Made by a program: the position numbers and the translations under genes. From the IMG/VR virus record IMGVR_UViG_3300020442_000002, positions 1 through 57,758 of that record: a stretch of DNA of 57,758 nt; one strand, given 5' to 3'. The DNA is from a virus (Duplodnaviria > Caudoviricetes). The notes under the pieces were generated by a model. The model had not been told where the DNA came from. It worked only from the letters and a program-made list of their open reading frames with translations, and did no database searches. Positions 14,722 to 47,714 of this stretch are shown piece after piece; position 1 is the stretch's first letter; each line of letters starts with the position of its first letter.

Positions 14722-14723
14722 AC

Positions 14724-32273: not shown

Positions 32274-32289
32274 AAATTCCCCCAAAGGC

Positions 32290-32319
32290 TTGACATGCGA
32301 TCATATAGGACCCTACACT
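32290..32319 (+). promoter_or_regulatory. sigma70-like promoter of the replication operon
   Basis: TTGACA-N18-TACACT in a divergent intergenic region. Confidence 0.6.
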
Positions 32320-32364
32320 GGCCGTCCAGCCCTCATCAAGGGCTTGAACATGAAAGGAGAACGT

Positions 32365-32937
32365 ATGAGCGAATTGCTCTTTGATATGGAAGCGGATCAA
32401 GCCACCGCCTCCTCCATCGAACAGATGGATAACACCGGCTTATCTAGCGTGGCAGAAATTGCTCGCGCTGTTCGCAACCACGAAGACTTGGTTAACAAAC
32501 TTGAAGACCAGTTGAAGGCGGCGAAGCGAGAACTGCTAAAACTCACCGACGAAGACCTCCCCGCGATGCTCCAAGAGCTTGGCCTCAATTCTTTTGAACT
32601 TGAGGACGGCTCCAAGGTGACTGTGCGTCCGACATTCGGCGCTCACATCAAGGCGGAAAACCGTGAAACAGCCTTCGGCTGGCTACGTGCTAACGGGTTT
32701 GATGACATCATCAAGAACACTGTTAGCTGTAACTTTGGCCGGGGCGAGGACCAAGAAGCCGCAGAGTTTATCGACTATGCGCAGGGCCTCGGTTACGCGG
32801 CGGAGCAAAAGACCGAAGTCCATCCCAGTACGTTGAAGGCTTGGGTCAAAGAGCGGGTACAAAACGGGGAGACCTTCCCCATGGAACTTTTCGGGGCCTT
32901 TGTCGGGCAACGAGCAACAATTGCGAGGAAAAAATAA
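32365..32937 (+). CDS. Replication-module hypothetical protein
   Basis: AAGGAG RBS; WLRANG.DDIIK, VHPSTLKAWVKE. Confidence 0.75.
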   Translation: MSELLFDMEADQATASSIEQMDNTGLSSVAEIARAVRNHEDLVNKLEDQLKAAKRELLKLTDEDLPAMLQELGLNSFELEDGSKVTVRPTFGAHIKAENRETAFGWLRANGFDDIIKNTVSCNFGRGEDQEAAEFIDYAQGLGYAAEQKTEVHPSTLKAWVKERVQNGETFPMELFGAFVGQRATIARKK

Positions 32938-33710
32938 TGGGTAAAGCAGTAGCAGAAAAGGAATCAAACAATGGGATCGTCACGTTTGACGCGAGCATCT
33001 TTGAGCAAGACGCTGGTAAAGGATTGGAGAACATGGGCCAAGACGACTTGGCTTTGCCTTTCCTCAAAGTTCTTAGCCGCCAAGACCCAACTCTGGACGA
33101 TTTGGATGGGGCTAAAGCGGGCGACATTCTCAATACCGTATCGAATCAGGTCTATACTGGTAAGACAGGTATTCGTGTCGTACCTTGCCATTATCAGCGG
33201 CGTTTTGTTGAGTGGGCTCCTCGGGGCTCTGGTAACGGCGCTCCTTTGAACATCTATACGCCGGAGGACAGCCGTCCAAACACAGAGCGTGGCGATGACA
33301 ACAAGGACTATGTGGTTGGCGGTAACGGCACCTATCTTGAAGAGACACACCAGCACTTCGTGTTGATTCTTGAGCCTGACGGAACCACCACTACCGCGCT
33401 GATCCCAATGAAAGCCACTCAGCTTAAAAAGAGCCGCAAGTGGAACAGCACGATTGCCCAGCGAACCCTTGTCGGCAAGAACGGGCCGTTCACGCCGCCA
33501 CGGTTTAGCCATGTCTATCTTCTGAAGACCGTGTCTGAGGAAAATTCAAAAGGCTCATGGCATGGGTGGGACATTACCCTTGAGGGCGTCGTAGACGACG
33601 CCGCTGTATACGGACAAGCCAAGCAGTTTGCAGAGAGCATCCAAGCTGGCGATGTCGAAGTGAAGCACACCAAAGAGGGCGACGACGCATCTGACGACGC
33701 GCCGTTTTAA
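32937..33710 (+). CDS. Single-stranded DNA-binding protein (putative)
   Basis: Acidic C-terminal tail DDASDDAPF; position before the primase. Confidence 0.65.
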   Translation: MGKAVAEKESNNGIVTFDASIFEQDAGKGLENMGQDDLALPFLKVLSRQDPTLDDLDGAKAGDILNTVSNQVYTGKTGIRVVPCHYQRRFVEWAPRGSGNGAPLNIYTPEDSRPNTERGDDNKDYVVGGNGTYLEETHQHFVLILEPDGTTTTALIPMKATQLKKSRKWNSTIAQRTLVGKNGPFTPPRFSHVYLLKTVSEENSKGSWHGWDITLEGVVDDAAVYGQAKQFAESIQAGDVEVKHTKEGDDASDDAPF

Positions 33711-33717
33711 GTGTTAC

Positions 33718-33739
33718 GGGGGCCGCAAGGCCCCCTTTT
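33718..33739 (+). terminator. Intrinsic terminator with GCAA tetraloop
   Basis: GGGGGCC-GCAA-GGCCCCC-TTTT. Confidence 0.75.
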
Positions 33740-33753
33740 CTGGTTTATAAAAA

Positions 33754-35292
33754 ATGTCTGATGCAAAAAGATTTGCGGCTATCTTCGATGGCCTCAAGCA
33801 AGCCTACGGCACGTTTGAAATCGACAGCACAAAAGCAAGTGGCAAGAACACCGGTAAAGCAAGAGTAGTTCGTGAACCACGGACCACGGAGCATTTTGAG
33901 CAGCATTTAGCCGGTTCTGGGGCGGGGATTGGGATCATCCCAATCAACGAAGACGACTCCTGTAAGTGGGGTTGTATCGACATTGACGAATACCCGTTAG
34001 ACCTCACGCGGCTGGTTGAGAAAATTCGCCGTAGCAAGATGCCTTTGGTAGTATGTCGTTCAAAGTCGGGGGGCGCACATTGTTTTCTTTTCTGTAGCGA
34101 ATGGGTAACTGCAAAGACAATGCAGTCCACGTTACAGCATTTAGCTAGTGGTCTGGGGTACGGCGGAAGCGAGATCTTCCCCAAACAAATCAAACTCTTT
34201 TTAGATCGTGGCGACATAGGCAACTTCCTCAATATGCCGTACTTCAATGCGGAGGACGGGTTGAGGTATGCCTTGAATGATGACGGCAGTGCGGCGACGT
34301 TACATGAGTTTTTTGCGTTACATGAAACGCACGTACAAACGCCAGAACAACTCCAAGCAATCACGCATCAAAAAGTTGAAGACACCGCAATTGTGGACGG
34401 TCCGCCCTGTCTCCAAACCCTATGCGCCCAAAAAATTAGCGAAGGGGGACGAAACAACGGACTCTTCAGCATAGGCGTTTATCTTCGCAAGGCGTACCCG
34501 GATACGTGGCAGGACGAAATCCTGCATCACAACATGGCGTACATTGATCCGCCGTTGCCTCTTAACGAGGTCAACCTCGTGGTTAAGCAGTTGGACAAGA
34601 AAGACTACGCTTATCGGTGCAGTGATGCGCCTATTCAGCCGTACTGTAACCGCGAGTTGTGTCAAACCCGAAAGTTTGGGATTGGTGCGGCGGTCAGTGA
34701 CATGGCTGTGGCTAACCTACGAAAGTACAACTCTATCCCGCCCGTGTGGTTTCTGGACGTTAACGGTGTGCCGTTAGAGCTAGACACCGACGCGCTGCAA
34801 AACCAGACGGTGTTCCAGAAGGCGTGTATTGAGCAACTTAACTTCATGCCTCAGACCATGCCGAAGCGCGGCTGGGAAGGCCGCATCAATCAGTTGATGA
34901 AAGAGATGTCTGAGACCGACGGGTCTATCATGGAGGTGTCAGAAGACGCCAGCATCAACGGCCAGTTCTACGAGTATCTTGACGAGTTCTGCACTTCGAC
35001 CCAGAAGGCGGAAGACCGTGAAGAGATTTTGTTGCGCAGGCCATGGGTAGATGACGAAACAAACGCCGTGCATTTCCGGCTGAAAGACTTTGAAGGTTTT
35101 CTGCGGAAGAACCGCTTTAGCGAGTTTAAAACCCACAAGGTGGCACAGCGGCTACGAGACATTAACGGCGAGTCTACGGTATTAAAGGTGAAGGGTAAGC
35201 CCATAAGAGTTTGGCGAGTGCCGATCAGTGACATCCCGCACGATCAAGTGGAGTCCAAAAACTTTGAAACACGGTCCACGGACCCGTTCTAA
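33754..35292 (+). CDS. Primase (AEP/prim-pol-like with PriCT domain)
   Basis: IDID, SKSGGAH, PPC and EGGRNNGLF motifs. Confidence 0.8.
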   Translation: MSDAKRFAAIFDGLKQAYGTFEIDSTKASGKNTGKARVVREPRTTEHFEQHLAGSGAGIGIIPINEDDSCKWGCIDIDEYPLDLTRLVEKIRRSKMPLVVCRSKSGGAHCFLFCSEWVTAKTMQSTLQHLASGLGYGGSEIFPKQIKLFLDRGDIGNFLNMPYFNAEDGLRYALNDDGSAATLHEFFALHETHVQTPEQLQAITHQKVEDTAIVDGPPCLQTLCAQKISEGGRNNGLFSIGVYLRKAYPDTWQDEILHHNMAYIDPPLPLNEVNLVVKQLDKKDYAYRCSDAPIQPYCNRELCQTRKFGIGAAVSDMAVANLRKYNSIPPVWFLDVNGVPLELDTDALQNQTVFQKACIEQLNFMPQTMPKRGWEGRINQLMKEMSETDGSIMEVSEDASINGQFYEYLDEFCTSTQKAEDREEILLRRPWVDDETNAVHFRLKDFEGFLRKNRFSEFKTHKVAQRLRDINGESTVLKVKGKPIRVWRVPISDIPHDQVESKNFETRSTDPF

Positions 35293-36794
35293 TGTTTCGT
35301 ATTTTTGGGCCACCCGGGACCGGGAAGACAACCACTTTGCTGAACATGGTAGAAAAGTCTTTAGACAGCGGAATAACCCCATCACAAGTGGGGTTTTTTG
35401 CATTCACTAAAAAAGCCGCTAACGAGGCCAAAGAGCGGGCGGCAAAGCGTTTTGATTTAGACCCAGACAAGGATCTTCCGTACTTTCGCACCATTCATTC
35501 CTTGGCCTACCGCCTGATGGGAGTCAAGGAAAACCAAATGATGGGGCCGCAAAACTACAAAGAGTTGTCGGCGGCCATCGGTTTTAATTTGAGCGGCGCT
35601 ATGAGCGAAGAAGAGGATGTGTCGTTTAAGGCGACAGATCACCCGATCCTTCAGCTAATTAACCTTGCAAAAACCAAAAAAACATCGTTGCGAACAGAGT
35701 ATAACCACAGTGAAGTTAACTTTACGTGGGTGGAAGTAAAGTATGTGGCCGACTCTTACGCAAATTATAAAAAGGCATTTGGCTTAATCGACTTCACAGA
35801 CATGCTGGAAATGTTTGTAGAGCAGGCCGACCACCTTGTCCCGCACATGAAGATTTGTTTCTTGGACGAGGCTCAAGATCTTTCTCCGCTGCAATGGGAC
35901 ATTGCTCATAAGTTAGATGGGCGGTCAGAGCGCATGTTCGTGGCGGGCGATGACGACCAAGCCATTTACCGGTGGGCGGGAGCGGACGTAGATCACTTCA
36001 TCAATCTCCCCGGCGGCGCAGAGGTCTTGGAACAAAGCTACCGGGTTCCTGCGGCGATTCATGAGCTTGCAGAAAAAATTGCGGGGCGCATTCAAAACCG
36101 GTTTCCCAAGGTGTATCGCCCTCGGCAAGAGCGCGGACAAATACTGCGCGTGCCGGACATCCGCTCCATAGATATGTCGCAAGGCACTTGGCTCGTTATG
36201 GCACAAGCCCGATTCATGCTTTACCCAATAGAGCAGGAATTAAAAAACGGCGGCTATCTGTTTGAGCGCCAAAACGGCGGAAGATCTATACCGGAAAAAA
36301 TGTCGCTGGCTATCAATGGCTGGGAGGCCATGCGAAAAGGGCGGGTGATTACCTGCGGCACGGCGCAGGCCATCTACTCTTATATGTCTGGCAACGGGGT
36401 GCGTATCAAACGGGGCCATAAAAAGATAGAGGCCCACGATAACGAAATGTTTGGACTAACCGATTTACAAGAACATTTTGGTCTATTGGCTACGAATGAG
36501 ATGATCTGGCACGAGGCCATGGATAAAATACCAGAGGGGGACAGGGCATACATCACGGCTCTTCTCCGGCGAGGCGAGAAGTTCAACGCCAAGCCCCGAA
36601 TAAGATTGTCCACGATCCACGGAACAAAAGGTGGAGAGGCAGAAAACGTTGTAATCCTACCGGATTTGACCGCCGCGGCGTTAGACACGCCGGGGGACGA
36701 TCTTCACCGCGTTTTTTACGTGGGGGTGACGCGGGCCCTTCAGAACCTTTACATCTTAGAACCTGAAGACTATTTAAGAGCATACGCTTTATGA
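35292..36794 (+). CDS. UvrD/Rep-like SF1 helicase
   Basis: GPPGTGKT, DEAQD, GDDDQAIY, TIHGTKGGE, YVGVTRA. Confidence 0.92.
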   Translation: MFRIFGPPGTGKTTTLLNMVEKSLDSGITPSQVGFFAFTKKAANEAKERAAKRFDLDPDKDLPYFRTIHSLAYRLMGVKENQMMGPQNYKELSAAIGFNLSGAMSEEEDVSFKATDHPILQLINLAKTKKTSLRTEYNHSEVNFTWVEVKYVADSYANYKKAFGLIDFTDMLEMFVEQADHLVPHMKICFLDEAQDLSPLQWDIAHKLDGRSERMFVAGDDDQAIYRWAGADVDHFINLPGGAEVLEQSYRVPAAIHELAEKIAGRIQNRFPKVYRPRQERGQILRVPDIRSIDMSQGTWLVMAQARFMLYPIEQELKNGGYLFERQNGGRSIPEKMSLAINGWEAMRKGRVITCGTAQAIYSYMSGNGVRIKRGHKKIEAHDNEMFGLTDLQEHFGLLATNEMIWHEAMDKIPEGDRAYITALLRRGEKFNAKPRIRLSTIHGTKGGEAENVVILPDLTAAALDTPGDDLHRVFYVGVTRALQNLYILEPEDYLRAYAL

Positions 36795-36949
36795 AAAAGG
36801 AAACAGAAATGAGTCGAATACCCTGTCCAAAATGTGCCAACAAGGCAGAAGAAGTCATTAACGCTGAAAAGCAATTACGTTTAGGCTGGTGGTGCCCGGT
36901 GTGCAACCACTTTGAGCAAGCAATCTATCGCGAGCGAAAGGTGGCCTAA
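36791..36949 (+). CDS. Small zinc-ribbon protein (52 aa)
   Basis: CPKC...CPVC; overlaps both neighbours. Confidence 0.65.
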   Translation: MKKETEMSRIPCPKCANKAEEVINAEKQLRLGWWCPVCNHFEQAIYRERKVA

Positions 36950-38856
36950 TGACAACCGGTAAACTGCAAATGGCTATGTTCCCGCCGAAGAGCGATTGGG
37001 TGCCCCCTGTTGAGCTTCCCGACATTTTTGACGCGGACGAAATTGCCATCGACGTAGAAACCCGCGACCCGAATCTAAAGCAGAAGGGACCGGGCTGGCC
37101 CACAGGCGATGGTGAAGTGGTGGGCTATGCCATCGCAGTTTCCGGGTGGAAATGCTACATCCCCGTCGGCCATGCTGGCGGGGGTAACCTCGACAAACGC
37201 ATTGTGAGCAAGTGGCTTAAAAAAGTTTTTGAGTCACCTGCTGACAAGATCATGCACAACGCCCAGTACGACCTTGGCTGGATTCGCGCCATGGGGTTTG
37301 AAGTTAAGGGCCGCGTAATCGACACAATGATTACCGCTAGCCTGATTGATGAGAACCGGTTCAGCTACAGCCTGAATGCGCTTTGCTACGACCATCTGGG
37401 CAAGACAAAATCCGAAAAAACTCTGGTGGAGGCGGCCAAGGAGTTTGGCGTCGATCCCAAGGGCGAGATGTGGAAGCTGCCCGCGATGTATGTGGGGCCC
37501 TACGCAGAGACTGATGCCGAGATCACACTGGAGCTTTGGAGCCACTTCAAGACCCTGCTCAACCGGGAAGATCTTTGGGACGTTTGGCGGCTAGAGATAG
37601 ACCTGCTCCCGCATCTGGTAGAAATGACCATGCGCGGAATACGAGTAGACATTGACCGCGCTGAACGGACCAAGCAAGTCTTGATGAAGCAAGAAAAGGA
37701 AGTCATCAAAAAAATCAAAGCGCTGACAGGAAGCAACGTTGAGATCTGGGCGGCCCAATCCATAGCCAAGGCGTTTGACGGGTTGGGATTGCCCTACCCC
37801 AAGACAGACAAAGGCTCGCCCAGCTTCACAAAACAGTTCCTGATGGAACACCAGCACGAGCTTGCACAGCTAATTATGAAGGCTCGTAACCTCAACAAGA
37901 CCAACGGTAACTTTATTGACGGCATACTAAAGTTCACCCACGACGGAAGAATACACAGTCATATCAATCAGTTACGCTCAGATGATGGCGGCACAGTATC
38001 TGGCCGCATTTCCATGAACTCGCCCAACCTCCAACAGATCCCGGCCCGCGACCCAGAGCTTGGCCCTATGATCCGCTCTTTGTTCCTCCCGGAAGAAGGT
38101 CAGCAGTGGGCGGCAATTGACTTCTCGCAACAGGAGCCACGGATCTTGGTCCACTTTGCCAAGAACTACGGCGACTACAAAAACATGCCTATGCCCGGGG
38201 TAGAGGATTTCGTAGACGGCTATCGCAACGACCCCAACATGGACTTCCACAGTATGGTGAGTGAAATGGCGGCCATCCCGCGGAAACAAGCTAAGGTTAT
38301 CAACCTCGGCATGATGTACGGCATGGGCGTGAACAAACTGTCCGACCAACTCGACCTCAGTGTCGAAGAAGCAAAGGCCCTGACTCAGCAATACCACAAG
38401 AAGGTTCCTTTCGTTAAAGGCCTGATGCGCGGCGTACAGAACAAGCTTGACGACCCACGGTCCTCGGGCAGTCTCCGATCTTTGCGTGGCCGCAAGTGCC
38501 GCTTCGATCTATGGGAGCCGGACAGCTTTGAAATGCACAAGGCCCTCCCCCGGGAAGAAGCAATCGCGGTCCACGGGCCTACTACCCGGCTTCGACGCGC
38601 ATACACGTACAAGGCCCTCAATCGGCTCATACAGGCTTCGGCGGCGGACATGACCAAGCAGGCGATGGTGAACGTTTGTTCCGCAGGGAGCGTCCCAATG
38701 CTTCAGGTACACGATGAGCTTGCTTTCTCAGTCGAGAATGCAGAGCAGGCAAAAGAATTGGCAGAAATAATGGAACAGGCCGTTCCGTTACAGGTGCCAA
38801 ACAAATGCGATGTGGATCTGGGGCCTAGCTGGGGCGAGTGTGAAGAGCTTGAATAG
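36949..38856 (+). CDS. polA: DNA polymerase family A with 3'-5' exonuclease (Leu762 type)
   Basis: DVET exo I, DFSQQEPR motif A, KVINLGMMYG motif B, VHDEL motif C. Confidence 0.95.
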   Translation: MTTGKLQMAMFPPKSDWVPPVELPDIFDADEIAIDVETRDPNLKQKGPGWPTGDGEVVGYAIAVSGWKCYIPVGHAGGGNLDKRIVSKWLKKVFESPADKIMHNAQYDLGWIRAMGFEVKGRVIDTMITASLIDENRFSYSLNALCYDHLGKTKSEKTLVEAAKEFGVDPKGEMWKLPAMYVGPYAETDAEITLELWSHFKTLLNREDLWDVWRLEIDLLPHLVEMTMRGIRVDIDRAERTKQVLMKQEKEVIKKIKALTGSNVEIWAAQSIAKAFDGLGLPYPKTDKGSPSFTKQFLMEHQHELAQLIMKARNLNKTNGNFIDGILKFTHDGRIHSHINQLRSDDGGTVSGRISMNSPNLQQIPARDPELGPMIRSLFLPEEGQQWAAIDFSQQEPRILVHFAKNYGDYKNMPMPGVEDFVDGYRNDPNMDFHSMVSEMAAIPRKQAKVINLGMMYGMGVNKLSDQLDLSVEEAKALTQQYHKKVPFVKGLMRGVQNKLDDPRSSGSLRSLRGRKCRFDLWEPDSFEMHKALPREEAIAVHGPTTRLRRAYTYKALNRLIQASAADMTKQAMVNVCSAGSVPMLQVHDELAFSVENAEQAKELAEIMEQAVPLQVPNKCDVDLGPSWGECEELE

Positions 38857-38904
38857 GGCGTAAAATAGCCCTATACTGTCCCATACCTGTGTAGGAGATA
38901 TCCC

Positions 38905-39138
38905 ATGGATACAACAAAATGGAAGTCGGTTTTGCTGCCGAGAGATGTGTACGAGGAAGTTGTTGTAATTGCTCGTGTAGAAGGCCGAACCATTAGTGGT
39001 CAACTTCGCTACATTGTTGAAGCGTGGAAGCAAGAAAATTTATCTAACCGCGATCAAGAATACATCGTGGAGCAAATCACCGAGTTCAAAAAAGAAACGG
39101 GCACCGAAGCATTGACTTCAAAAAGTTATTCGATATGA
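38905..39138 (+). CDS. Ribbon-helix-helix-like DNA-binding protein (putative)
   Basis: KSVLLPRDVY...A..EGRTISGQL pattern. Confidence 0.55.
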   Translation: MDTTKWKSVLLPRDVYEEVVVIARVEGRTISGQLRYIVEAWKQENLSNRDQEYIVEQITEFKKETGTEALTSKSYSI

Positions 39139-39305
39139 CGTTTAGTGTTATGCAGGCCGAGTTCGACAAGGCCTTGAAAAAATTAGAGAAGGGTTACGAA
39201 GAAGGCAAAGTAGAAAAGTCTGACTTCGACAAGTTGCACATTTGGCATGAATTTCTCAAGGCAAAGATTGACGCAGAGCGAGAAAAGAATGCCAAAGAAC
39301 TTTGA
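39135..39305 (+). CDS. Small hypothetical protein (56 aa)
   Basis: MTFSVMQAEF...; ATGA overlap with upstream gene. Confidence 0.55.
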   Translation: MTFSVMQAEFDKALKKLEKGYEEGKVEKSDFDKLHIWHEFLKAKIDAEREKNAKEL

Positions 39306-39528
39306 CAACGTAACCTGCCCTTCGCATTACAACCAAGGTGATGTCGAGTGTATCGACGGCATCAAGGCCAGTATGTCCCCTGAAAGTTTTCAGGGGTATC
39401 TCAAGGGGAACATCCAAAAGTACGTATGGAGATACGAGATAAAAAAAGAGCCTGTAGAGGACCTGCGGAAGGCCCGTTGGTACTTGGACCGTCTTATTAT
39501 GGAGCTAGTAAATGGCACCATGGAGTAG
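39289..39528 (+). CDS. DUF3310 (SaV-like) protein
   Basis: PSHY...ECID...GN..KY.WR...EDLRKARWYL. Confidence 0.85.
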   Translation: MPKNFDNVTCPSHYNQGDVECIDGIKASMSPESFQGYLKGNIQKYVWRYEIKKEPVEDLRKARWYLDRLIMELVNGTME

Positions 39529-39689
39529 ACTCCCGGGATGCCCAGCTAGCCGTGCAGGCGGCGCACCAGATGGCGGATCGGTTTAACCGCAACATGGCGA
39601 TCCAGCACGACTTGTCTGTGGTGCCTGAAGCCGACGCAACAAAAGAGATTCTTGAGGTAGTAAGGCCCGATTGGTATACTACGCCTTGA
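39426..39689 (+). CDS. Hypothetical protein, start uncertain
   Basis: 3' half looks protein-like; no clear start codon near 39525. Confidence 0.35.
   Translation: MEIRDKKRACRGPAEGPLVLGPSYYGASKWHHGVDSRDAQLAVQAAHQMADRFNRNMAIQHDLSVVPEADATKEILEVVRPDWYTTP
39652..39680 (+). promoter_or_regulatory. sigma70-like promoter of the candidate sRNA
   Basis: TTGAGG (39652-57)-N17-TATACT (39675-80) with extended -10 TGn. Confidence 0.65.
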
Positions 39690-39791
39690 CGGTCACTCCG
39701 TCGAATCAAACGTTTTAGGATTCAAGTAGGCTTTTCTCCCAAAGTGAGTTGAACTGAATCCGACCAACCCCCCGCAACGGGGGGTTTTTTT
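39687..39791 (+). ncRNA. Candidate trans-acting sRNA antisense to the early-gene RBS
   Basis: Own promoter; 5' hairpin GACGG/CCGTC; stem GGATTCA/TGAATCC with TCTCCCAAAGTG in the loop; terminator. Confidence 0.65.
39766..39791 (+). terminator. Intrinsic terminator
   Basis: AACCCCCCG-caa-CGGGGGGTT plus T run. Confidence 0.85.
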
Positions 39792-39792
39792 A

Positions 39793-40056
39793 TTAATGGA
39801 TGGTGTCTCCATCGCCGGGCGAAAGATTACCCACCTGCAAAAAGCAGGGCCCGGTTTCCCCCAAGTAAATCCCAAGAATATTGAACTCAACGAACTCTTT
39901 TGCTTCGTCCCATGACATGTCGATGCTGTCGTCCATGACAATTTTGATCATCTTCTGAACGTCGTAGACCAACACTTCTTCATCGCCGTCTTTTGTGGAA
40001 ACCGTGCCAATTCCAAGAATGGCTTCGTCAAACCCCTCTGGCCCCATCATTTGCAT
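39793..40056 (-). CDS. Hypothetical protein
   Basis: GFDEAILG...VYD...EAKEFVEFNILG.Y.G..P motif seen in marine phage proteins. Confidence 0.75.
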   Translation of the reverse strand: MQMMGPEGFDEAILGIGTVSTKDGDEEVLVYDVQKMIKIVMDDSIDMSWDEAKEFVEFNILGIYLGETGPCFLQVGNLSPGDGDTIH

Positions 40057-40117
40057 TCAACCTCGACCTATATTATCGTATACAACATATTTTGCTGCCC
40101 ACGAATCGGATTTTAAC

Positions 40118-40933
40118 ATGGACCTGATTAAAGCCATTGACGTTGGGACAGAAAACAACTCAGAAAGCGAGCGCCGTTGTTACATTGGTGCAAGTAACGT
40201 CGGCCATCCTTGCCGGGCCTTCCTTCAGTTTAGCCTTCGTGGCTACCCGCAGAAAAAAGTTCCCCCCGCGGTAAAAAGAATTTTTGAGATAGGCCACATC
40301 ATCGAAGACCTCGTGGTCAAGGACCTCAAAAAAGGTGGGGCCACCGTCTACGAAGTCGATCCTAAAACCAAAGAGCAGTTTGAATACACCTCGTTTGGCG
40401 GACACTTGCGCGGTCACGCCGACGGTATCATCGCGTTTGGCGAAGATAAGGTCATCCCCGAGATCCTTGAGATCAAATCCATGAACGATAAAAAGTGGAT
40501 GATGTTTCGGGACAAAGGCATCCATAAAAGCCACCCCATCTACTACTACCAAACGCAATTGCTAATGGGGTTATCCGGGGCAAAGGGCGCATGGATGGTG
40601 GCATACAACAAAAACAACTCTACCTATCACGCGGAACACGTTCCCTATAATCATAACGATTATGTTTTCCTAATCTACAAGGTTATGTCCGTGGTCCGGG
40701 ACTTGTCGGCAAAGAAGATATCGAGCGACCCCCGAAACTTCCATTGCCGTTATTGCAATTACCGTCCGCATTGCTGGCCCGAGGGGGAAGTATCCCTACC
40801 CCTCCCCGTGGAGTGCCGAACGTGTAAGCACAGCAAACCAGTTGGTAAGCGCAAGTGGTTTTGCACGTTGCACAAGTCACGGGCCACGGACCCCTGTTCA
40901 CAGTGGTACAAAGTGGAGTCTACGGAAGAATGA
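40118..40933 (+). CDS. Cas4-like PD-(D/E)XK exonuclease
   Basis: GHADG...LEIKS, Y..Q and C..C.Y...C Fe-S/Zn ligands. Confidence 0.8.
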   Translation: MDLIKAIDVGTENNSESERRCYIGASNVGHPCRAFLQFSLRGYPQKKVPPAVKRIFEIGHIIEDLVVKDLKKGGATVYEVDPKTKEQFEYTSFGGHLRGHADGIIAFGEDKVIPEILEIKSMNDKKWMMFRDKGIHKSHPIYYYQTQLLMGLSGAKGAWMVAYNKNNSTYHAEHVPYNHNDYVFLIYKVMSVVRDLSAKKISSDPRNFHCRYCNYRPHCWPEGEVSLPLPVECRTCKHSKPVGKRKWFCTLHKSRATDPCSQWYKVESTEE

Positions 40934-41133
40934 GTATGCGCGACGTTTCACGGCCCACGGTCCAATCTGGGGATGTTTGTTGGTGGTGTCGGGGCCGCTT
41001 GATCTGGGGCGGCGATCACGACATTTCGGAAGAAGAAGAGTTCTTTGACATGTCTACTAACCTCACCTGTTCGGACTGCGGCGCACACGTTATCTACTAT
41101 CGCCTAAAGGAAGAAGAAGTGGAGATCTGTTGA
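40930..41133 (+). CDS. Small zinc-ribbon protein
   Basis: CWWC...LIWGGDHD...CSDC. Confidence 0.7.
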   Translation: MSMRDVSRPTVQSGDVCWWCRGRLIWGGDHDISEEEEFFDMSTNLTCSDCGAHVIYYRLKEEEVEIC

Positions 41134-41219
41134 TGGACGAAGAAGACAAGCGCATCCAGCCCGATTGGAAGGATTACTTCATCATAGGGTTGCTTTTATT
41201 AATTATGACCCTAGTATGA
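41133..41219 (+). CDS. Tiny TM peptide (28 aa)
   Basis: MDEEDKRIQPDWKDYFIIGLLLLIMTLV; TGATG coupling. Confidence 0.45.
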   Translation: MDEEDKRIQPDWKDYFIIGLLLLIMTLV

Positions 41220-41249
41220 AGGCACCTAATCGCGTGTGGGGGCAGGCGG

Positions 41250-41765
41250 TTGAAAAAATACCCATGCCATTGGTGTGGCGAAGAAAAATTATATAGAGAC
41301 TTTGCGGCCCGCTTCAAAAAGGGCGGCAAGCTAGTTCGCTATCGAAGCCAAGCGCCAAGCTGCTCTGCTTGCGACGTTAAACGTCAAAGCGAAAGCATCC
41401 ACAAAAACCGTATCAACTTCCTTAACACAAAGTTGCGGGACATCGAACGCCGGGCAAAAAAAGACGGCCACAAGATCTCCGTCAAATGCACCGTCGATTT
41501 TTTCTTGGAGTTGTTTGAGGCGCAACAAGGGCTGTGCGCCATCACCGGGCTACCCATGACATGGGGCCACGAAAACCAACACGGCAACAGCGGCAACCGG
41601 CGCGGCACCAACATATCAATAGACCGGATAAACTCAGACCAGATGTACAGCCCGGACAACGTCCGCCTAGTCTGTGACCGCGTCAACAAGATACGATCCA
41701 ACATGGACGACACCGACCTCTACTTCTGGTGCGCCCAAATTGCAGCAAGTATCCGAAGAATCTAA
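41250..41765 (+). CDS. HNH-like endonuclease
   Basis: CAITG...SIDRI.S..Y..DNVRLVC..VN. Confidence 0.7.
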   Translation: MKKYPCHWCGEEKLYRDFAARFKKGGKLVRYRSQAPSCSACDVKRQSESIHKNRINFLNTKLRDIERRAKKDGHKISVKCTVDFFLELFEAQQGLCAITGLPMTWGHENQHGNSGNRRGTNISIDRINSDQMYSPDNVRLVCDRVNKIRSNMDDTDLYFWCAQIAASIRRI

Positions 41766-41923
41766 CGCTTGCGAAGCTTCTTGGCCGCGTCTTCGATTAG
41801 CTTGAGCCGCTTCTCGTAAAACGACAACGACTCTTCACCGACCTCGGCCATCGGATCTTCGTCAACGTAATTCTCTGCCTCTTCCAACGCGTCTTCCCAC
41901 TCGTCCCCCGGATCACGGTTCAC
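41762..41923 (-). CDS. Small acidic protein (53 aa)
   Basis: GTG start overlapping the upstream stop (GTGA), GGAG RBS. Confidence 0.55.
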   Translation of the reverse strand: MNRDPGDEWEDALEEAENYVDEDPMAEVGEESLSFYEKRLKLIEDAAKKLRKR

Positions 41924-42177
41924 GGGTCTAACTCCGTGATACTCATGACCCAGCCCATGGGAATGGCAATCTCAGCATCGCCCTCGACTACGTTTCCGTC
42001 GGCATCTGGAATGATGTGCGGACAGACAATCAAGCGCTCTTCATCTATATGAATCACTGCGCCACAAGACAGGATCGTCGCTTCACGGATCTGCTTTAGA
42101 TCTTCTAGCGGCCTCCAGCCCTCTTTTGTTCCCCCACATGCATCGCGCCACTCAACTAAATAAAGCTTGGTGTTCAT
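41920..42177 (-). CDS. Hypothetical protein (VEWxDA family)
   Basis: LVEWRDA...GW...IP.G.V..I. Confidence 0.7.
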   Translation of the reverse strand: MNTKLYLVEWRDACGGTKEGWRPLEDLKQIREATILSCGAVIHIDEERLIVCPHIIPDADGNVVEGDAEIAIPMGWVMSITELDP

Positions 42178-42249
42178 CTTGTATACGACTCGTGTATGCG
42201 ATAAAGTATTGTTCTACCTTTAAGCCTACTACATAACCGAGGAAAAAGA

Positions 42250-42531
42250 ATGAAATTCAACCCCATGCTACGCATTACCCGGAAAGCTGACCGCGTCGAA
42301 GCGGCTAAATCTTTTGAAGACAACGAAGGCTTCCGGGAGTACGTGATGGACATGCTGGAGAAGCGGGCTAAAGAATCCCCGGCGTCAGAAGAGTATAAGC
42401 TTATGGAGTCTTTGAGCTATGCCTCCACCGATGAGGACTTTGTGTTCAAGTTGTGCCAGATGGGCTACATCATCTACACCGACTTCCTCATGGATGCTTA
42501 TGCGGGGTTTGAAAAGAAGCATTTGCACTAA
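42250..42531 (+). CDS. Hypothetical protein
   Basis: GAGG RBS; GTATGCGATA upstream at 42194. Confidence 0.7.
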   Translation: MKFNPMLRITRKADRVEAAKSFEDNEGFREYVMDMLEKRAKESPASEEYKLMESLSYASTDEDFVFKLCQMGYIIYTDFLMDAYAGFEKKHLH

Positions 42532-42752
42532 TGCGCCATTGTTACGTTTGTAACAAATCCGGCGTCCCAATCAAAAACGCTTTATGCGAGAGGTGTTCTA
42601 GTGACCTTTATGGAATGGGCCCTGACCATGTCCCTGCTTTCCAACGTAATCCTGTTCGCTGCGCTTCAGCAACAGAAACATCAATTGACCGTCTTGAAAG
42701 ACAACGCCAAGAGGTTCGCGAAATATTAATGGCTAAATGGGGAGATTCATGA
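42531..42752 (+). CDS. Small Cys-containing protein
   Basis: CYVC...CERC; coupled on both sides. Confidence 0.55.
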   Translation: MRHCYVCNKSGVPIKNALCERCSSDLYGMGPDHVPAFQRNPVRCASATETSIDRLERQRQEVREILMAKWGDS

Positions 42753-43456
42753 GCTTGTTCAAAAAGCGTCCATTAGAGTTAAAGGCTTATTGTTCAGATA
42801 TAGCTGTCGTAGATTTTTACCCGATTGCTCCCGCGCAAAAGCACATTCCAAAGTGGTGGAAAAATTTAAAAACGCCGAGCTGGGAAGAGGCTATCCCGGA
42901 TGGGGTGGACTCGGTGACAAGCATGAAAAGTTGCCCGGGGTTTGTCGGCCTATACAAACAAGGCTTTATCGTCCCGGCCCCTTGTGACCTTGGGATAATG
43001 ATTAGGAATGACGAAATTTATATTCAAGCGGCGTCGGACATTCCAGCCGCTTTTCATTCAAAAACCCAACATCGCGGCTGGTTGGACAGTGGTTATCAAA
43101 ACGCAAAAGTGTATTTGCCGTGGCACCTTGTCTGCAATGACCCCAGTGTGGAGTTTTTACTGACGGCCCCGCAGTATTTAGACGAAGAGTATTACGATGA
43201 TTTTTTTATCCCTTCTGGCGTCACTAACTTTAGGTATTCCCGAAGTATTCATTGGCACCTCATGTTGAGGTTAGGCAAAGACAAGGAAATTCTAATCCCC
43301 GCGGGCAGGCCCTTGTGGCACATCATCCCTTTGACAAATAAAAAAATTAATTTATCTGTTCATCACGAAACAGAAGAAAATATTAAAAAATTAGCCCCTG
43401 CCTACCAAAACGCCGGAAAATTCTTTTACGGTGGTTTCTCAAAACCAAGGAGATAA
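42749..43456 (+). CDS. Hypothetical protein of a family often found beside phage 2OG oxygenases
   Basis: PKWWK...MKSCPG...G....PW...G.PL..IIP. Confidence 0.6.
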   Translation: MSLFKKRPLELKAYCSDIAVVDFYPIAPAQKHIPKWWKNLKTPSWEEAIPDGVDSVTSMKSCPGFVGLYKQGFIVPAPCDLGIMIRNDEIYIQAASDIPAAFHSKTQHRGWLDSGYQNAKVYLPWHLVCNDPSVEFLLTAPQYLDEEYYDDFFIPSGVTNFRYSRSIHWHLMLRLGKDKEILIPAGRPLWHIIPLTNKKINLSVHHETEENIKKLAPAYQNAGKFFYGGFSKPRR

Positions 43457-43458
43457 TT

Positions 43459-44127
43459 ATGGAAATTACTGACGTTAAGATTGAGGATTTTGTAGGTGTT
43501 TTCGACACTACCTTTGACACGCAGCCGCTATTGGATTACTACGCCTATGCGGAAAAAACAGGCATGTGCGTTACCCGTAGATCTTTGCCTACGTCGGATC
43601 AAGCCGGAAACATAGTGCAAGAAGATGCGCCTTTTTATCCCAATACCAGAACCGACTCCGGGCTGACTACGGCGTATTGGGCAGAGAGACATAGGAACCT
43701 GTCCCCAGCCAGTGAATACATGCTTGCTTTAGATGAGCATATGGATTATGTCCGAGGCTATTGCGGCGCACTTTCTAAGGGGTTTGAGGTGTATTGCGAA
43801 AGTTATGAGGGGCTGACGAACATGCATCTTCAACATTCGTATTTTAACCTCCAGAAGACGTTGCCCAAGCAGGGATATCACACGTGGCATTGTGAGAACA
43901 CTGGAAAGCATTGTACGCGCCGGGTTCTAGTGACCATGATGTATTTAAACGATGATTTTGAGGGAGGCGAGACCGAGTTTTTATATCAGTCACTACGCAT
44001 TCAGCCTAAAAAAGGCCGAATGTTGATCTGGCCCGCAGGCTTTACCCACACGCACAGAGGCAATCCGCCTCTCTCCGGGGACGGGAAATACATCGCAACG
44101 GGGTGGATAGAGGCGGTTCCGTTATGA
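43459..44127 (+). CDS. 2OG-Fe(II) oxygenase (prolyl-4-hydroxylase-like)
   Basis: WHCE, YLND.FEGGETEF, WPA.FTH.HRG, KY.ATGW. Confidence 0.85.
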   Translation: MEITDVKIEDFVGVFDTTFDTQPLLDYYAYAEKTGMCVTRRSLPTSDQAGNIVQEDAPFYPNTRTDSGLTTAYWAERHRNLSPASEYMLALDEHMDYVRGYCGALSKGFEVYCESYEGLTNMHLQHSYFNLQKTLPKQGYHTWHCENTGKHCTRRVLVTMMYLNDDFEGGETEFLYQSLRIQPKKGRMLIWPAGFTHTHRGNPPLSGDGKYIATGWIEAVPL

Positions 44128-44858
44128 GCAAAATTTTTCAAAGCATAACAGACGTTCCGACGACGCCGTTGTTTGGGGAATTAATCAATCCGTTAAGCCC
44201 AACATATCGTGAGTTTAAATCATGGCTAATGGACAAGCGTTCCACGCCCAAGTTGTACATAGTGGAGCCCACGGCTGACGAAACTCCCGAATGGTATTTA
44301 AGCCCGGATTTTCGTTACGTTTTTAGTCGCAGCTTCCATAAACGAGACGTTGTGGGAGCGAAGTGGGGAGACGAAGAGCTTTGGTCCAAGGGCTATGAAG
44401 CGAAAGAGACGGACCCCAAAGCACCCATGCTACGGGAGATCATAGCGGAGATTTTGCAACACAACGGGTTGGAGCTAGACACGCTTTATCGTTCAGCTTT
44501 TAACGTAACGCTGCCCCGGGCCAACGTCCCCGGCACTCCAAAAGGAATTGCGCTTCCCCATGTTGACGATAATTTTCCGCACTTGGTTATGCTGATTTAT
44601 TTAAATACGTGTAGTGGGGATACCATCCTCACGGATCGACTCCTTAACAACAATGAAGGAACGTACCGCTGGCCATTTAAAGACTTCGTGCAAAACTCTC
44701 CACAACACGAGAGCGAGTGCGAAATCTTGGAAAGAATTCCACCAGTAGCCGACAAGGTGGTTATTTTTGATGGGAAGCGCTACCACTACAACGAGTGCCC
44801 TCTTCCCGGGGAGCCCCACCGCCTAGCACTCGTCGCTACCTTCTCTTTAAAGCGCTAA
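44124..44858 (+). CDS. 2OG-Fe(II) oxygenase-like protein
   Basis: PHVD, IYLN..GDT, FDG.RYH, distal R. Confidence 0.7.
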   Translation: MSKIFQSITDVPTTPLFGELINPLSPTYREFKSWLMDKRSTPKLYIVEPTADETPEWYLSPDFRYVFSRSFHKRDVVGAKWGDEELWSKGYEAKETDPKAPMLREIIAEILQHNGLELDTLYRSAFNVTLPRANVPGTPKGIALPHVDDNFPHLVMLIYLNTCSGDTILTDRLLNNNEGTYRWPFKDFVQNSPQHESECEILERIPPVADKVVIFDGKRYHYNECPLPGEPHRLALVATFSLKR

Positions 44859-44934
44859 GTTTTTATTTCCTTTTGATATAAGCTTATATCAAACTCTGAT
44901 TGATCCTGCCCCCGGGGTATGCGATACTATGGGG

Positions 44935-44950
44935 TGTTCCACGTGGAACA
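44935..44950. promoter_or_regulatory. parS-like palindrome TGTTCCACGTGGAACA (copy 1)
   Basis: Perfect 16-bp palindrome matching chromosomal parS. Confidence 0.8.
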
Positions 44951-44977
44951 CTCTTTTAACTACTTTGGGATTTAATC

Positions 44978-45235
44978 ATGAAACCAGAAACCACTAACGA
45001 CGTACCGCTGACCCAAGCGGAAACGCAATACGGCAAACCCCAAGACCGCATCGTCAAGCTGCTCCAGCTAGGATTCAGCCGGGATGAAGTCTTTTACGAC
45101 ATCTGCGAAAAATGCTCCATGTCTACCACCCACAGCCGGTCACCCAAAAAGCGTAAGCAGGAACTCGCTAACCTCATCGCCCAAATAGACAGCATGAGCG
45201 TCTTCGCCACCGGCACCATCCCGGAGGGCGCGTGA
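44978..45235 (+). CDS. Hypothetical protein with a variant early-type leader
   Basis: TTGATC-N17-GATACT, GTATGCGATA and ACTTTGGGA upstream. Confidence 0.7.
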   Translation: MKPETTNDVPLTQAETQYGKPQDRIVKLLQLGFSRDEVFYDICEKCSMSTTHSRSPKKRKQELANLIAQIDSMSVFATGTIPEGA

Positions 45236-45396
45236 AAGACAAAGAAAGGGGCTGGGTGGAGATTATGGATAGCACCCTGAGAATCCGGGAGGATGGCCGC
45301 GTGGACTGCTACAGCCCCGCAGGCTACCGCATCCTCGACCTCGACAACCTTCCCGAGGAAACACAACAAAAGCTCAAGGACGCGGCAGGTGAGTAA
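45232..45396 (+). CDS. Small hypothetical protein (54 aa)
   Basis: GTGA coupling, GGAGG RBS. Confidence 0.55.
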   Translation: MKDKERGWVEIMDSTLRIREDGRVDCYSPAGYRILDLDNLPEETQQKLKDAAGE

Positions 45397-45484
45397 CCGA
45401 ATAGGTGAACTGCTCGTCGCCGCGGCTATCGCCGTAGCCGGGATAAGCGTCATCATCGGCGTACTATTCCTCTTGATCCTTTGA
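45389..45484 (+). CDS. Tiny TM peptide
   Basis: MSNRIGELLVAAAIAVAGISVIIGVLFLLIL. Confidence 0.4.
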   Translation: MSNRIGELLVAAAIAVAGISVIIGVLFLLIL

Positions 45485-45488
45485 TCGT

Positions 45489-45542
45489 GACCCGGGGTCC
45501 GTGAATAGGTCATTTCTGGCCACGGTTCACGGACCTCGGGTC
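45489..45542. repeat. 17-bp inverted repeat
   Basis: GACCCGGGGTCCGTGAA / TTCACGGACCTCGGGTC, one mismatch. Confidence 0.75.
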
Positions 45543-45555
45543 TTAATTTCGCTAT

Positions 45556-45790
45556 CTATATAGTGTTTTCCCAGAGAAATAAAAAAATAAAAAATAAATT
45601 AAAAATAGGCGTAACCGGCGTAACCGCGTAACCATGGCCTGAAAGCCGCACAAACACTGGGTTTTTGTGGTTACAGCGGGTTACACGGGTATACGCCATT
45701 ATGTGCAGAGTTTGTTAATCAGGCTATTGCTATTGAGGTTTTTCAGTTTTGAAAAAAATTATTTTTATTTTTCTGGGAAATATATATAGG
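45556..45790. other. Putative replication origin: AT-rich inverted arms enclosing opposed GTAACC iterons
   Basis: Arms ctatatagtgttttcccagagaaataaaa / ttttatttttctgggaaatatatatag; CGTAACC x3, GGTTAC x2. Confidence 0.55.
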
Positions 45791-45844
45791 GAGGGCAAAA
45801 TTAAGGTATGGTTATGCTGACTTACTCACATATAGGGGCCTTCC

Positions 45845-46462
45845 ATGCCTAAACAGAAAAGCCGCTATGCCAAGGTGCTGGACACCAAAGCGGCATCCCT
45901 TCCCGAAGCCAAGCGCCAGAAGCGCAATCGACCTCCGCTGGCCGAAAAGCGCCTGACCCGAAAGCAGGAGCTTTTTGTCCGGGAACTCGTGTCAAAAGAT
46001 GGACAGATCACCATGCGGGAAGCGGCAATCAACGCAGGCTATCCCGAACGGTCTGCCCATGTCCGAGCCTCTGAATTAACTAACCCCAAGATTAGCCCGC
46101 ACGTTTGCCGTGCGATCCGCGAATATCGACAGGAGCTTGATCAAAAGTACGGCGTGGAATACCAGCGCCACCTGCGGGATCTTCAAGTCATCCGAGATGC
46201 AGCGCTAGAGAACGGTGCGTTTTCTGCCGCAGTGCAGGCCGAGTATCGGCGGGGTCAGGCGCAGGGGGACATCTACGTCAACAAGACGGAAATCCGGCAC
46301 GGCACGATTGAGCAGATGAGCAAAGAAGAAGTCTTGAAAGCTCTGGAAGAACTCAAGCAGGTGTATGCGCCCTTGACACACGATGCCGGAGTGGAGGATG
46401 CTGGTAATAGAAAAAAAGCAAGAGAACGTCTGGGAGATCAAGCAGTAGATGTTTCTGATTAG
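45845..46462 (+). CDS. terS: Terminase small subunit
   Basis: LTRKQELFV...EAAINAGY...A...ASEL..P.V: HTH pattern of the Terminase_2 family. Confidence 0.7.
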   Translation: MPKQKSRYAKVLDTKAASLPEAKRQKRNRPPLAEKRLTRKQELFVRELVSKDGQITMREAAINAGYPERSAHVRASELTNPKISPHVCRAIREYRQELDQKYGVEYQRHLRDLQVIRDAALENGAFSAAVQAEYRRGQAQGDIYVNKTEIRHGTIEQMSKEEVLKALEELKQVYAPLTHDAGVEDAGNRKKARERLGDQAVDVSD

Positions 46463-46604
46463 ATTCTTTGGCCGCCTTTGGTTTGGCCGTGAGAAGTGGG
46501 CGATCATGAATGAAGAGCAGACGCCCATTGTGTATCGACCCAAGGCATTTATGTCTGAGTTAGAGCGGTTAGACTTTGAAGGCCTGATGAAACAGGATGA
46601 TTAA
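46449..46604 (+). CDS. Small hypothetical protein (51 aa)
   Basis: Fills the gap and overlaps neighbours. Confidence 0.4.
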   Translation: MFLIRFFGRLWFGREKWAIMNEEQTPIVYRPKAFMSELERLDFEGLMKQDD

Positions 46605-47046
46605 AGTAAAGAACCTACCACACACGGTGACTGATATTTTAGACACGCCGGTTAAGGCGAAGCGCCCTCGCGAAGCCAGCTTTTGGCAGGCCATGAAACA
46701 GGCCATGAAAACACATCACCCTGATTGGAGTGCCACGCGATTAGAGTCTCGTGCCACGCAGGGTGTGCCCGACGCTTTAATTTTGGACAGCGACGGTAAT
46801 TGGCATCTGGTGGAGTTGAAGACCACTCAAAACAATTCTGTCCGCATCTCGCCTCATCAGGTAGCTTTTGCTACCAAACACGCCCACGGCAGTTGCTGGA
46901 TCGCAGTTAAGCACCCTGCGGGGGTGTCCCTGTACCGTGGCGATTGCGTGATGGATCTGCGCCTAGATGGATTGGACTCTGAGCCCACCGCGCTTTTCCC
47001 CACGCCCGTAGATTGGGCGGCCTTTTTCAAAACACTTGCCACATAA
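46597..47046 (+). CDS. VRR-NUC / Holliday-junction-resolvase-like PD-(D/E)XK nuclease
   Basis: E..F...GVPD...VELK...ISPHQ. Confidence 0.75.
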   Translation: MIKVKNLPHTVTDILDTPVKAKRPREASFWQAMKQAMKTHHPDWSATRLESRATQGVPDALILDSDGNWHLVELKTTQNNSVRISPHQVAFATKHAHGSCWIAVKHPAGVSLYRGDCVMDLRLDGLDSEPTALFPTPVDWAAFFKTLAT

Positions 47047-47105
47047 CTAATCAATCGCATACACTCGGTGTAGGCAATGATGCCTGCACATATTGGGAGG
47101 TGTGT

Positions 47106-47324
47106 ATGAGTATGTTGTGTGAGTTGTGGACCGTGGAGTCTGGTGAAAAGGTCCGGTGGTTTGAAACTGAGAAAAGCGCTCGGGAGTTTGCGCGGGATAT
47201 GTTCAATGTCCACGAGGATGGGGTGCCTTTCGTCAACTGGATCACGTTGGTAGACAAAGCGGATTTGTGTTGGCAGTTAAACCATCTGGAACAATTTACG
47301 CCAGACCACTGGGAGGATGCGTGA
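47106..47324 (+). CDS. Early-region hypothetical protein
   Basis: GGGAGG RBS, 9-bp leader hairpin and promoter TTGCCA-N18-TACACT upstream. Confidence 0.7.
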   Translation: MSMLCELWTVESGEKVRWFETEKSAREFARDMFNVHEDGVPFVNWITLVDKADLCWQLNHLEQFTPDHWEDA

Positions 47325-47694: not shown

Positions 47695-47714
47695 CCCCGC
47701 TCCGGCGGGGTTTT
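47695..47714 (+). terminator. Intrinsic terminator (identical to 48371)
   Basis: CCCCGC-tccg-GCGGGG-TTTT. Confidence 0.75.

Follow-up and report, generated by a model that had tools for sequence, protein, structure and literature searches.

We analysed a complete virus record from IMG/VR (IMGVR_UViG_3300020442_000002; Duplodnaviria, Caudoviricetes), a 57,758-bp sequence with direct terminal repeats that is referred to here, at its full length, as the window. Nearly all of its genes lie on the + strand. The subject of this work is a short unit at 39652–39791 (+) that is predicted to encode a small RNA (sRNA) whose loop is complementary to the ribosome-binding sites (RBSs) of seven genes arrayed between 47.9 and 52.3 kb. 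A preliminary description made from the sequence of the window had outlined this unit, and all of its elements were confirmed base for base. The unit begins within a small protein gene (39570–39689, +; 39 aa), the 3′ end of which holds the predicted sRNA promoter (39652–39680, +). This promoter is of the sigma-70 type, with TTGAGG at 39652–39657, a 17-nt spacer and the extended –10 element TGg+TATACT at 39672–39680. A consensus promoter scan found the same TTGAGG-N17-TATACT arrangement again, scoring 9/12 with TG before the –10 box.

The predicted non-coding RNA spans 39687–39791 (+) and is about 105 nt long, with its 5′ end placed from the –10 box and its 3′ end at the T run. It starts with a 5′ hairpin (39688–39702, +; GACGG/CCGTC) that carries a conserved CACUCC motif at 39694–39699. 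The main hairpin (39718–39761, +) is built from an outer stem, GGAUUCA/UGAAUCC (39718–39724/39755–39761), and an inner stem, GGCUU/GAGUU, and it presents the seed. This seed loop (39732–39747, +) reads UUUUCUCCCAAAGUGA, and its core TCTCCCAAAGTG (39735–39746) is the reverse complement of CACUUUGGGAGA. An intrinsic terminator (39766–39791, +) closes the unit, with a hairpin at 39766–39786 followed by a T run to 39791. Both hairpins (GACGG/CCGTC and, as DNA, GGATTCA/TGAATCC) and the loop core lie where they had first been described, and a terminator scan returned the same U-tailed + strand terminator. Folding of the 105-nt RNA, suggested at the outset as a check, gave three hairpins with –36.9 kcal/mol and z = –3.0 against 200 shuffles. 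A U-tailed terminator, which this unit has, is one mark of an Hfq-dependent sRNA, the other being dependence on Hfq in the host. The promoter and the intrinsic terminator bound a short non-coding unit that has no conserved open reading frame (ORF) on either strand. In a related locus, L023, the unit is flanked on both sides by + strand genes and its orientation therefore agrees with local transcription. We consider it very likely that 39652–39791 (+) is a real sRNA gene. A cmscan of 39500–39900 against Rfam 15 at E ≤ 10 gave six weak, chance-level matches, none of them to C4; the best match of the unit region was Phe_leader, with 25.7 bits against a gathering score of 55 (E = 0.034).

The complement of the loop core recurs in the window as a leader motif, CACTTTGGGAGA, which we call the tag. 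Allowing at most one mismatch, the window contains eight matches: six exact copies on the + strand (47934, 48438, 50269, 50937, 51681 and 52239), one with a single mismatch (49019), and a single minus-strand copy, which is the sRNA loop itself at 39735–39746. Shuffled sequences contained a mean of 0.30 and a maximum of 2 matches, and none of 100 shuffles reached eight. The figure of 0.007 expected copies per 12-mer given in the preliminary description is plain arithmetic (2 x 57758 / 4^12). All seven + strand copies end 5–7 nt upstream of an ATG. The motif search thus bore out the original claim that the loop core is complementary to the RBSs of the genes at 47952, 48456, 50288, 50954, 51698 and 52256, with a 12-nt site at the gene at 49038.

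Pairing of the sRNA with these leaders was scored as the net cofold gain with the region from –40 to +20 around each start, and 110 ORF starts were compared (median –3.7 kcal/mol). The array starts gave gains of –10.6 to –18.4 kcal/mol and took ranks 1–4 and 6 of the 110-start list, two of them (a1 and a4) being scored apart. The first predicted target (47933–47954, +) comprises the leader and ATG of the first array gene (47952) and has the best gain of the starts tested, –18.4 kcal/mol. Its site at 47934 lies in a longer leader, where the longest match is 13 nt plus 4 nt after one mismatch; a duplexfold ranking, which is crude in that it moves in 3-nt steps and ignores accessibility, was used only for this long match at 47929–47952. 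The homologous leader in L023 matches L023's own loop over 17 nt, as read off the sequences. The second predicted target (48438–48458, +) carries CACTTTGGGAGA before ATG 48456, behind the motif GTATGCGATA and a GC hairpin (–14.3 kcal/mol). The third (49019–49040, +) reads TACTTTGGGAGA before ATG 49038, the start of a 377-aa phrog_1362 gene (49038–50171), and has a gain of –14.0 kcal/mol. The remaining four again carry CACTTTGGGAGA: 50269–50290 (+; ATG 50288, –12.4 kcal/mol), 50937–50956 (+; ATG 50954 of the Pfam GP88 protein gene at 50954–51646, –16.1 kcal/mol), 51681–51700 (+; ATG 51698, –15.1 kcal/mol) and 52239–52258 (+; ATG 52256, –10.6 kcal/mol). Two weaker sites named in the preliminary description are also real and are retained as candidate targets: ACTTTGGGA before ATG 44978 (44962–44980, +), behind another GTATGCGATA cassette (–8.5 kcal/mol), and CCTTTGGGGGAatttATG on the minus strand (32287–32270) at the gene for an SNF2-type helicase (32270–32287, –; about –7.0 kcal/mol).

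Six of the seven tag sites belong to repeated units composed of a terminator, GTATGCGATA, a short GC hairpin, the tag and an ATG. The arms of the GC hairpin swap between cassettes with pairing kept. The GTATGCGATA motif, found from 48402 to 52210 and at 44917, 42194 and 52793, can be read as an extended –10 element, TGcGATAnn. Apart from the Pfam GP88 and phrog_1362 matches, the array proteins have no assigned function. The gene content of the array (47952–52507) varies between the window and its close relatives L023, L025 and L027, with a1, a2, a4, a7 and a8 coming and going, and these differences fit cassette-mediated shuffling. In the same comparison the 377-aa array gene is 93–95% identical, and the polymerase is less conserved.

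Relatives were collected through the DNA polymerase. IMG/VR holds at least 599 related polymerase loci, and the best 80 were used (L002–L081). A covariance model of the unit, R1, was built from five close relatives and searched over 81 sources, and it matched the window and 29 loci at E ≤ 0.0011, always 1–2.4 kb downstream of the polymerase gene. Among the 32 closer loci (L002–L033), 29 carry the unit; in each, a promoter and a terminator enclose a 5′ hairpin that varies and a stem whose loop is invariant. The three without an R1 match are L006, which ends inside the unit, and L031 and L032, which have a diverged version that was found by eye. The promoter is conserved in related loci as TTGAnn, a 16- or 17-nt spacer and TAnnnT, often with TG. 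At the homologous site of L020, where a regular expression had taken another site, we read TTGAAG-N17-TATTAT from the sequence. In most relatives the promoter overlaps the end of the 39-aa gene. By tblastn this gene is 48–63% identical in L023, L025, L026, L027, L031 and L032, with third-codon-position changes in the alignment.

We then examined base pairing in 24 distinct sequences of the unit. Standard pairs occupy 93.3% of cells compared to 75.5% in shuffles, both sides have changed in 20 of 26 pairs, and the covariation score is 0.396 compared to 0.121 in shuffles (reached by 0 of 500), all in an alignment that was fitted to the model's structure and therefore favours it. When partners were slid by 1–3 columns the score fell to 0.045 or less, which argues that the covariation signal is real. 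Both-side changes affect all five pairs of helix 1 (the 5′ hairpin), all seven pairs of helix 2 (the main hairpin; 96.2% of cells pair) and five of the seven pairs of helix 4 (the terminator; 99.4% of cells pair). RNAalifold recovered only the terminator from a plain MAFFT alignment, because the stems were not aligned there, and the covariance-model alignment was used instead. Amid these changing helices, the 11-nt loop core CTCCCAAAGTG is invariant in 19 aligned relatives and its flanks vary. Each lineage A sequence folds so as to present the core, with a mean unpaired probability of 0.42–0.71.

Two other pieces of the RNA are also conserved. The CTCC of the 5′ hairpin is invariant in 19 sequences, and the surrounding CACUCC(U)AAA (39694–39699) resembles another anti-Shine-Dalgarno (anti-SD) sequence, lying in the hairpin loop in several sub-lineages. 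A palindromic stretch, AAACGUUU, follows at 39707–39716.

The related loci fall into lineages that we named A to F, with lineage A comprising the window and most loci. The lineage A loop reads (U)CUCCCAAAG and its tags read CUUUGGGAG(A). The preliminary description had proposed that loop and array RBSs should be compared between relatives for co-variation. In this comparison, set beforehand, loop and RBS changed together in four of the five other lineages (B, D, E and F), the lineage F site being a copy in a 3′ untranslated region (UTR) rather than a unit; lineage C counts as neutral. No relative was found that keeps the tag without a complementary stretch. In lineage B, the seed CUCCAAAG faces the tag CUUUGGAG. 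Its members L025, L026, L124, L148 and L150 (polymerase about 89%) have the loop UUUUCUCCAAAGUGAC, with one C fewer than lineage A; in L025, L026 and G001, a complete lineage B record of 57,767 bp, the loop is written UCUCCAAAG. All four cassette RBSs of G001 read CUUUGGAG, with one G fewer, and L025 has three such RBSs; CTTTGGGAG is absent from the entire G001 record. Scanning viral contigs for the 15-nt lineage B loop gave at least 118 stretches, most of them due to chance, and R1 confirmed five of the 80 loci checked (L096, L121, L124, L148 and L150).

Lineage D (L043, L059, L061, L062, L068, L069, L070, L072, L074 and L081; polymerase about 73%) pairs the seed UUCCCGUAG with the tag CUACGGGAA. 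At the same genome position it has a unit of about 70 nt with a TTGCAA-N16-TATATT promoter, a 5′ hairpin, the seed and a terminator. Its seed, (A/C)UUCCCGUAGU, is single-stranded, with an unpaired probability of 0.91–0.95, and its cassette tags follow CUA(C/U)GGGA(A/G) at four sites in L072, five in L061 and four in L043. Relative to lineage A, three positions have changed on both partners in a compensatory manner. Lineage E (L078) shows one further compensatory change relative to D, with the seed UCCCGUAAU and the tag AUUACGGGA; both RBSs present there read UUACGGGAG. Lineage F (L042) has three cassette RBSs reading AAACGGGA, and the matching UCCCGUUUU lies in a 3′ UTR before a terminator. 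We summarized these relations in a seed-by-genome matrix that counts sites before a start codon with at least nine Watson-Crick pairs to the seed core. Each genome has 3–8 (A), 3–4 (B), 1–5 (D), 1 (E) or 3 (F) sites for its own seed, and off-diagonal counts are 0–2. The seed and tag sites are 8–12 kb apart. The unit thus has a conserved, accessible seed that is complementary to its predicted targets and co-varies with them, lineage C being neutral. Low-complexity seed/tag pairs in L052/L053 and L037/L038 are possible further variants that are too weak to count.

These observations suggest a simple model. Host RNA polymerase would make the ~105-nt trans-acting RNA (39687–39791) from its own sigma-70-type promoter, and transcription would stop at the intrinsic terminator. 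The main hairpin would display UUUUCUCCCAAAGUG, which could pair over 12–17 nt with the Shine-Dalgarno (SD) leader CACUUUGGGAGA of seven single-gene promoter cassettes at 47.9–52.3 kb and more weakly with the 44978 and SNF2-type helicase sites. Coverage of the RBS would then lower translation of the entire cassette set together. Repression by occlusion is proposed because the pairing spans the SD sequence, 5–7 nt from the ATG. We consider it reasonably probable that a trans-acting RNA pairs with the cassette SD leaders and blocks their translation, and the RNA probably controls the whole gene set at once. We infer that the RNA is made and that pairing represses rather than activates. By analogy with the T4 RegA protein, the array would be an early gene set and the purpose of the RNA its shut-off or dosing. 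The preliminary description envisaged a timing switch or superinfection control, and the RNA may act in such a way.

Several observations weigh against this model. The GTATGCGATA cassettes at 42197 and 52796 carry other RBSs in place of the tag. The lineage A seed is only partly open at the unpaired probabilities given above, with 2–3 pairs predicted inside the loop. The conserved CACUCC(U)AAA motif has no complementary RBS target in the related loci examined. In lineage C (L031/L032), the loop UUUUCCAAAGUG has no site of at least nine pairs in L032, where the lineage A seed would have three; paired by hand with ACUUUGGGAAAA, CACUUUGGGAAU and CACUUUGGGAGG, this loop reaches 11–12 positions only with G-U pairs. 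The co-variation represents few independent evolutionary events: there are about five lineages, and many contigs have inherited each event. Lineages D, E and F were found by searching for complements of RBS motifs, a procedure that favours matches; nine of the 11 complement matches lie in one syntenic promoter-to-terminator unit and two lie elsewhere. Finally, sigma-70-type promoters precede both the sRNA and all of its proposed targets, and the sequence gives no sign of temporal separation. The RNA could set a threshold or give a pulse rather than act as a late switch.

A different possibility is that the sRNA is real but that its main job is not repression of the array. Host mRNAs might be its targets, in which case the match to the array would reflect no more than a shared SD/anti-SD likeness; alternatively, it might act positively, for example by protecting or processing leaders. 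Pairing with numerous G-rich ribosome sites is to be expected of a C-rich anti-SD loop, no phage target was found for the second conserved motif, and host targets are possible for a phage whose polymerase occurs in bins of inconsistent taxa. Yet the co-variation extends past the SD core to upstream positions unconnected with 16S rRNA (CUUU, CUAC, UUAC and AAAC versus AAAG, GUAG, GUAA and GUUU), and pairing directly over the SD sequence so close to the ATG is the usual geometry of repression. We regard a role away from array repression as unlikely.

The unit could also be nothing other than the 3′ end of the operon that runs from the polymerase to the 39-aa gene, a stabilizing hairpin and terminator acting in cis, with functionless complementarity to the array. 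It does directly follow this + strand operon and ends in its terminator, and with the promoter inside coding sequence, part of the conservation may stem from the protein. However, an invariant 11-nt loop amid varying stems is not expected of a mere stabilizer, the loop changes in step with distant RBSs, and L029/L030 keep a promoter (TTGACT-N16-TATCAT) even though the 39-aa gene is undetected there. We give the cis-only explanation little credence.

A phage or host DNA-binding protein might instead recognize CACTTTGG(G)AG in either orientation, with the copies co-evolving with the protein. Copies do occur in both orientations, one of them a third site within the 377-aa gene's 3′ UTR; the cassettes contain the operator-like GTATGCGATA, and a gene for an RHH-type protein lies 0.5 kb upstream of the unit. 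But covarying stems, a promoter and a terminator are conserved here, and a site acting as double-stranded DNA would require none of them. Both inverted copies belong to the transcribed strand, with a + strand T run no more than about 50 nt away, the lineage D seed is in the single-stranded linker of its 70-nt hairpin-seed-terminator unit, and all gene-strand copies keep a fixed distance to start codons. A purely DNA-level role appears very improbable. Finally, the minus-strand copy at 39735–39746 can hardly be the working RBS of a minus-strand gene, a possibility that the preliminary description had raised against itself: a real gene does lie just upstream on that strand (39793–40056; phrog_13182, E = 3.8e-16) and the window has a TTG after the motif, but this TTG opens only 10 codons, 14 of the 24 distinct sRNA loci have no start codon 3–13 nt after the motif and the other 10 open 1–51 unconserved codons, L023 has no minus-strand gene near the unit, the terminator between the unit and the 39793–40056 gene is oriented for the + strand, and no minus-strand gene follows the site.

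Returning to an RNA that represses the array, its closest published analogue is the c4 RNA (immI region) that phages P1 and P7 encode. c4 is excised from a longer transcript and differs in this respect from the present unit, which has its own promoter. The CI RNA of satellite phage P4 is related to c4 and likewise pairs near an RBS. According to PMC12197685, c4 loops block translation by pairing around a ribosome site in an mRNA of the same phage, and P1 and P7 have different specificities. The likeness lies in a phage-encoded trans-acting small RNA that directs an exposed loop against the phage's own RBS, with loop and target variants setting specificity (PMC12197685). The two are unrelated in sequence and structure, with no Rfam C4 match to the unit at E ≤ 10. 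Moreover, c4 acts on one operon (icd-ant) in an immunity circuit of temperate phages, whereas here one seed faces at least seven separately promoted genes in a phage with no evident integrase or immunity region.

C-rich loops that pair with many SD sequences are known from bacterial sRNAs, such as RsaE/RoxS and RNAIII of Staphylococcus and the 'cuckoo' alpha-r14/CcsR family. As proposed for the phage RNA, they repress several targets by pairing the UCCC-type motif of a hairpin loop with G-rich ribosome sites. They differ in being encoded by host-chromosome genes and in having generic SD targets; pairing of the phage RNA would run 4–6 nt past the SD sequence into a lineage-specific tag, and its targets are the phage's own cassette genes. 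The T4 protein RegA represses translation of many early mRNAs by occupying their RBSs. It resembles the proposed system in that one phage factor acts on the ribosome-binding regions of many early mRNAs, but RegA is a protein and the repressor proposed here is an RNA that would recognize its targets by base pairing.

On the target side, the array resembles the PeSL cassettes of T4-like phages, which are described in PMC4122927 as composite units of a terminator, an early-type promoter and a stem-loop between small variable ORFs. Here, six units likewise have a terminator, GTATGCGATA, a GC hairpin and an RBS, together with variable gene content. This comparison is by description, and the present phage is not T4-like, having a ~58-kb genome and, as its closest named relatives, DSL-LC04 and the HTVC023P-type pelagiphages; the abstract of PMC4122927 does not mention a matching antisense RNA for PeSLs. 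The sRNAs of phage PAK_P3, including sRNA2, were considered as a precedent and rejected as not of this kind, going by the portion of PMC4933390 that describes them. Within the literature library that was searched, we came across no account of a phage sRNA directed against an RBS tag common to many genes of the same phage.

Should the proposal hold, a short RNA together with a private RBS tag would coordinate separately transcribed genes at the post-transcriptional level and would be the RNA equivalent of translational repressor proteins like T4 RegA. The system is family-wide within an abundant set of uncultured marine phages that has at least 599 related polymerase loci in IMG/VR. Lineages A, B, D and E are natural compensatory variants that could be used to compare cross-specificity in a heterologous host without phage culture. 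For the annotation of phage genomes, the case suggests a rule: where genes share a leader, its reverse complement should be looked for immediately before terminators. We also considered whether seed/tag pairs are lineage-specific codes of translational immunity, by which the sRNA of a resident phage would silence the early cassettes of a superinfector with the same tag. Escape by joint change of tag and seed would then drive diversification (CUUUGGGAG, CUUUGGAG, CUACGGGAA, UUACGGGAG and AAACGGGA). We hold this speculation to be doubtful; if true, marine phages that appear to be virulent would possess an RNA-based heteroimmunity, one that resembles P1/P7 c4 yet covers a whole multi-promoter regulon.

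A further anti-tag copy in the window, UCCCCAAAGUG at 50177–50187 (+), closely precedes the terminator of the 377-aa gene, within that gene's 3′ UTR. The corresponding (U/C)CCCAAAGUG is found in the same place in all 12 related loci listed, about 27–43 nt before the T run, with positions that include 9553 in L009, 15892 in L015, 18891 in L025 and 18149 in L032. The lineage B copies (L025 and G001) lack one C, and variants match the RBS subtypes of their own genome, as with CUCCCCAAAGUG and CACUUUGGGGA in L016. The stretch can also fold on itself (ACACUU/AAGUGU). It may represent a sister RNA derived from the 3′ UTR.

The RHH-type (ribbon-helix-helix) gene (38905–39138; RHH_5, E = 1.3e-5, 25.2 bits where the cutoff is 26) comes shortly after the polymerase gene and is 54–82% identical across lineages A–D by tblastn. 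Its product is a candidate regulator of the cassettes. Lineage D cassettes have TATGGGATAAA in place of GTATGCGATA (L043, L061 and L072). The reverse complement of the cassette motif occurs within the sRNA promoter spacer of lineage D and of L029/L030 (TCCCATA/TCGCATA versus TATGGGA/TATGCGA), which hints at a common transcriptional regulator of the array and the sRNA.

Judged by DNA polymerase, the named phages closest to the window are DSL-LC04, assembled from a metagenome (55.7%), and two Pelagibacter phages, HTVC023P and HTVC027P (about 50%). A megablast of 30000–50000 found no match among named phages, and a sensitive blastn of 38900–40200 matched only the DUF3310 gene of unrelated phages. 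The polymerase occurs at nine loci in genome contigs, all of them metagenome bins with inconsistent taxa (Verrucomicrobiales, Flavobacteriaceae, Maricaulis, Planctomycetes and others), and therefore no host can be named.

DSL-LC04 (L231, OR003939.1) has a shared leader of its own, ACATAC(A/T)GGAGAAA, at four sites in 31048–32781. Its 61.5-kb record contains one inverted copy of ATACAGGA (32669), in a 3′ UTR directly before a terminator, with a match of only 9 nt. The same principle may operate there with another tag. In HTVC023P (L232, MN698239.1), four genes between terS and terL (13077–16161) share the leader ACTAACAAAG; no antisense copy of ACTAACAAAG could be called in this genome, which is too AT-rich. 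A 74%-polymerase relative, L045, has a weak R1 match at 13087–13197 (E = 0.028), with ACUCUCCUUGAA and UUUUCCUUUU before a terminator; this stretch may be another type of anti-SD RNA and is too weak to count. A scan of the whole window at Rfam gathering scores returned only the Mu-gpT-DE RNA (RF03012), which lies at 9416–9468, downstream of the likely major capsid gene, and scores 63.7 bits against a gathering score of 49.

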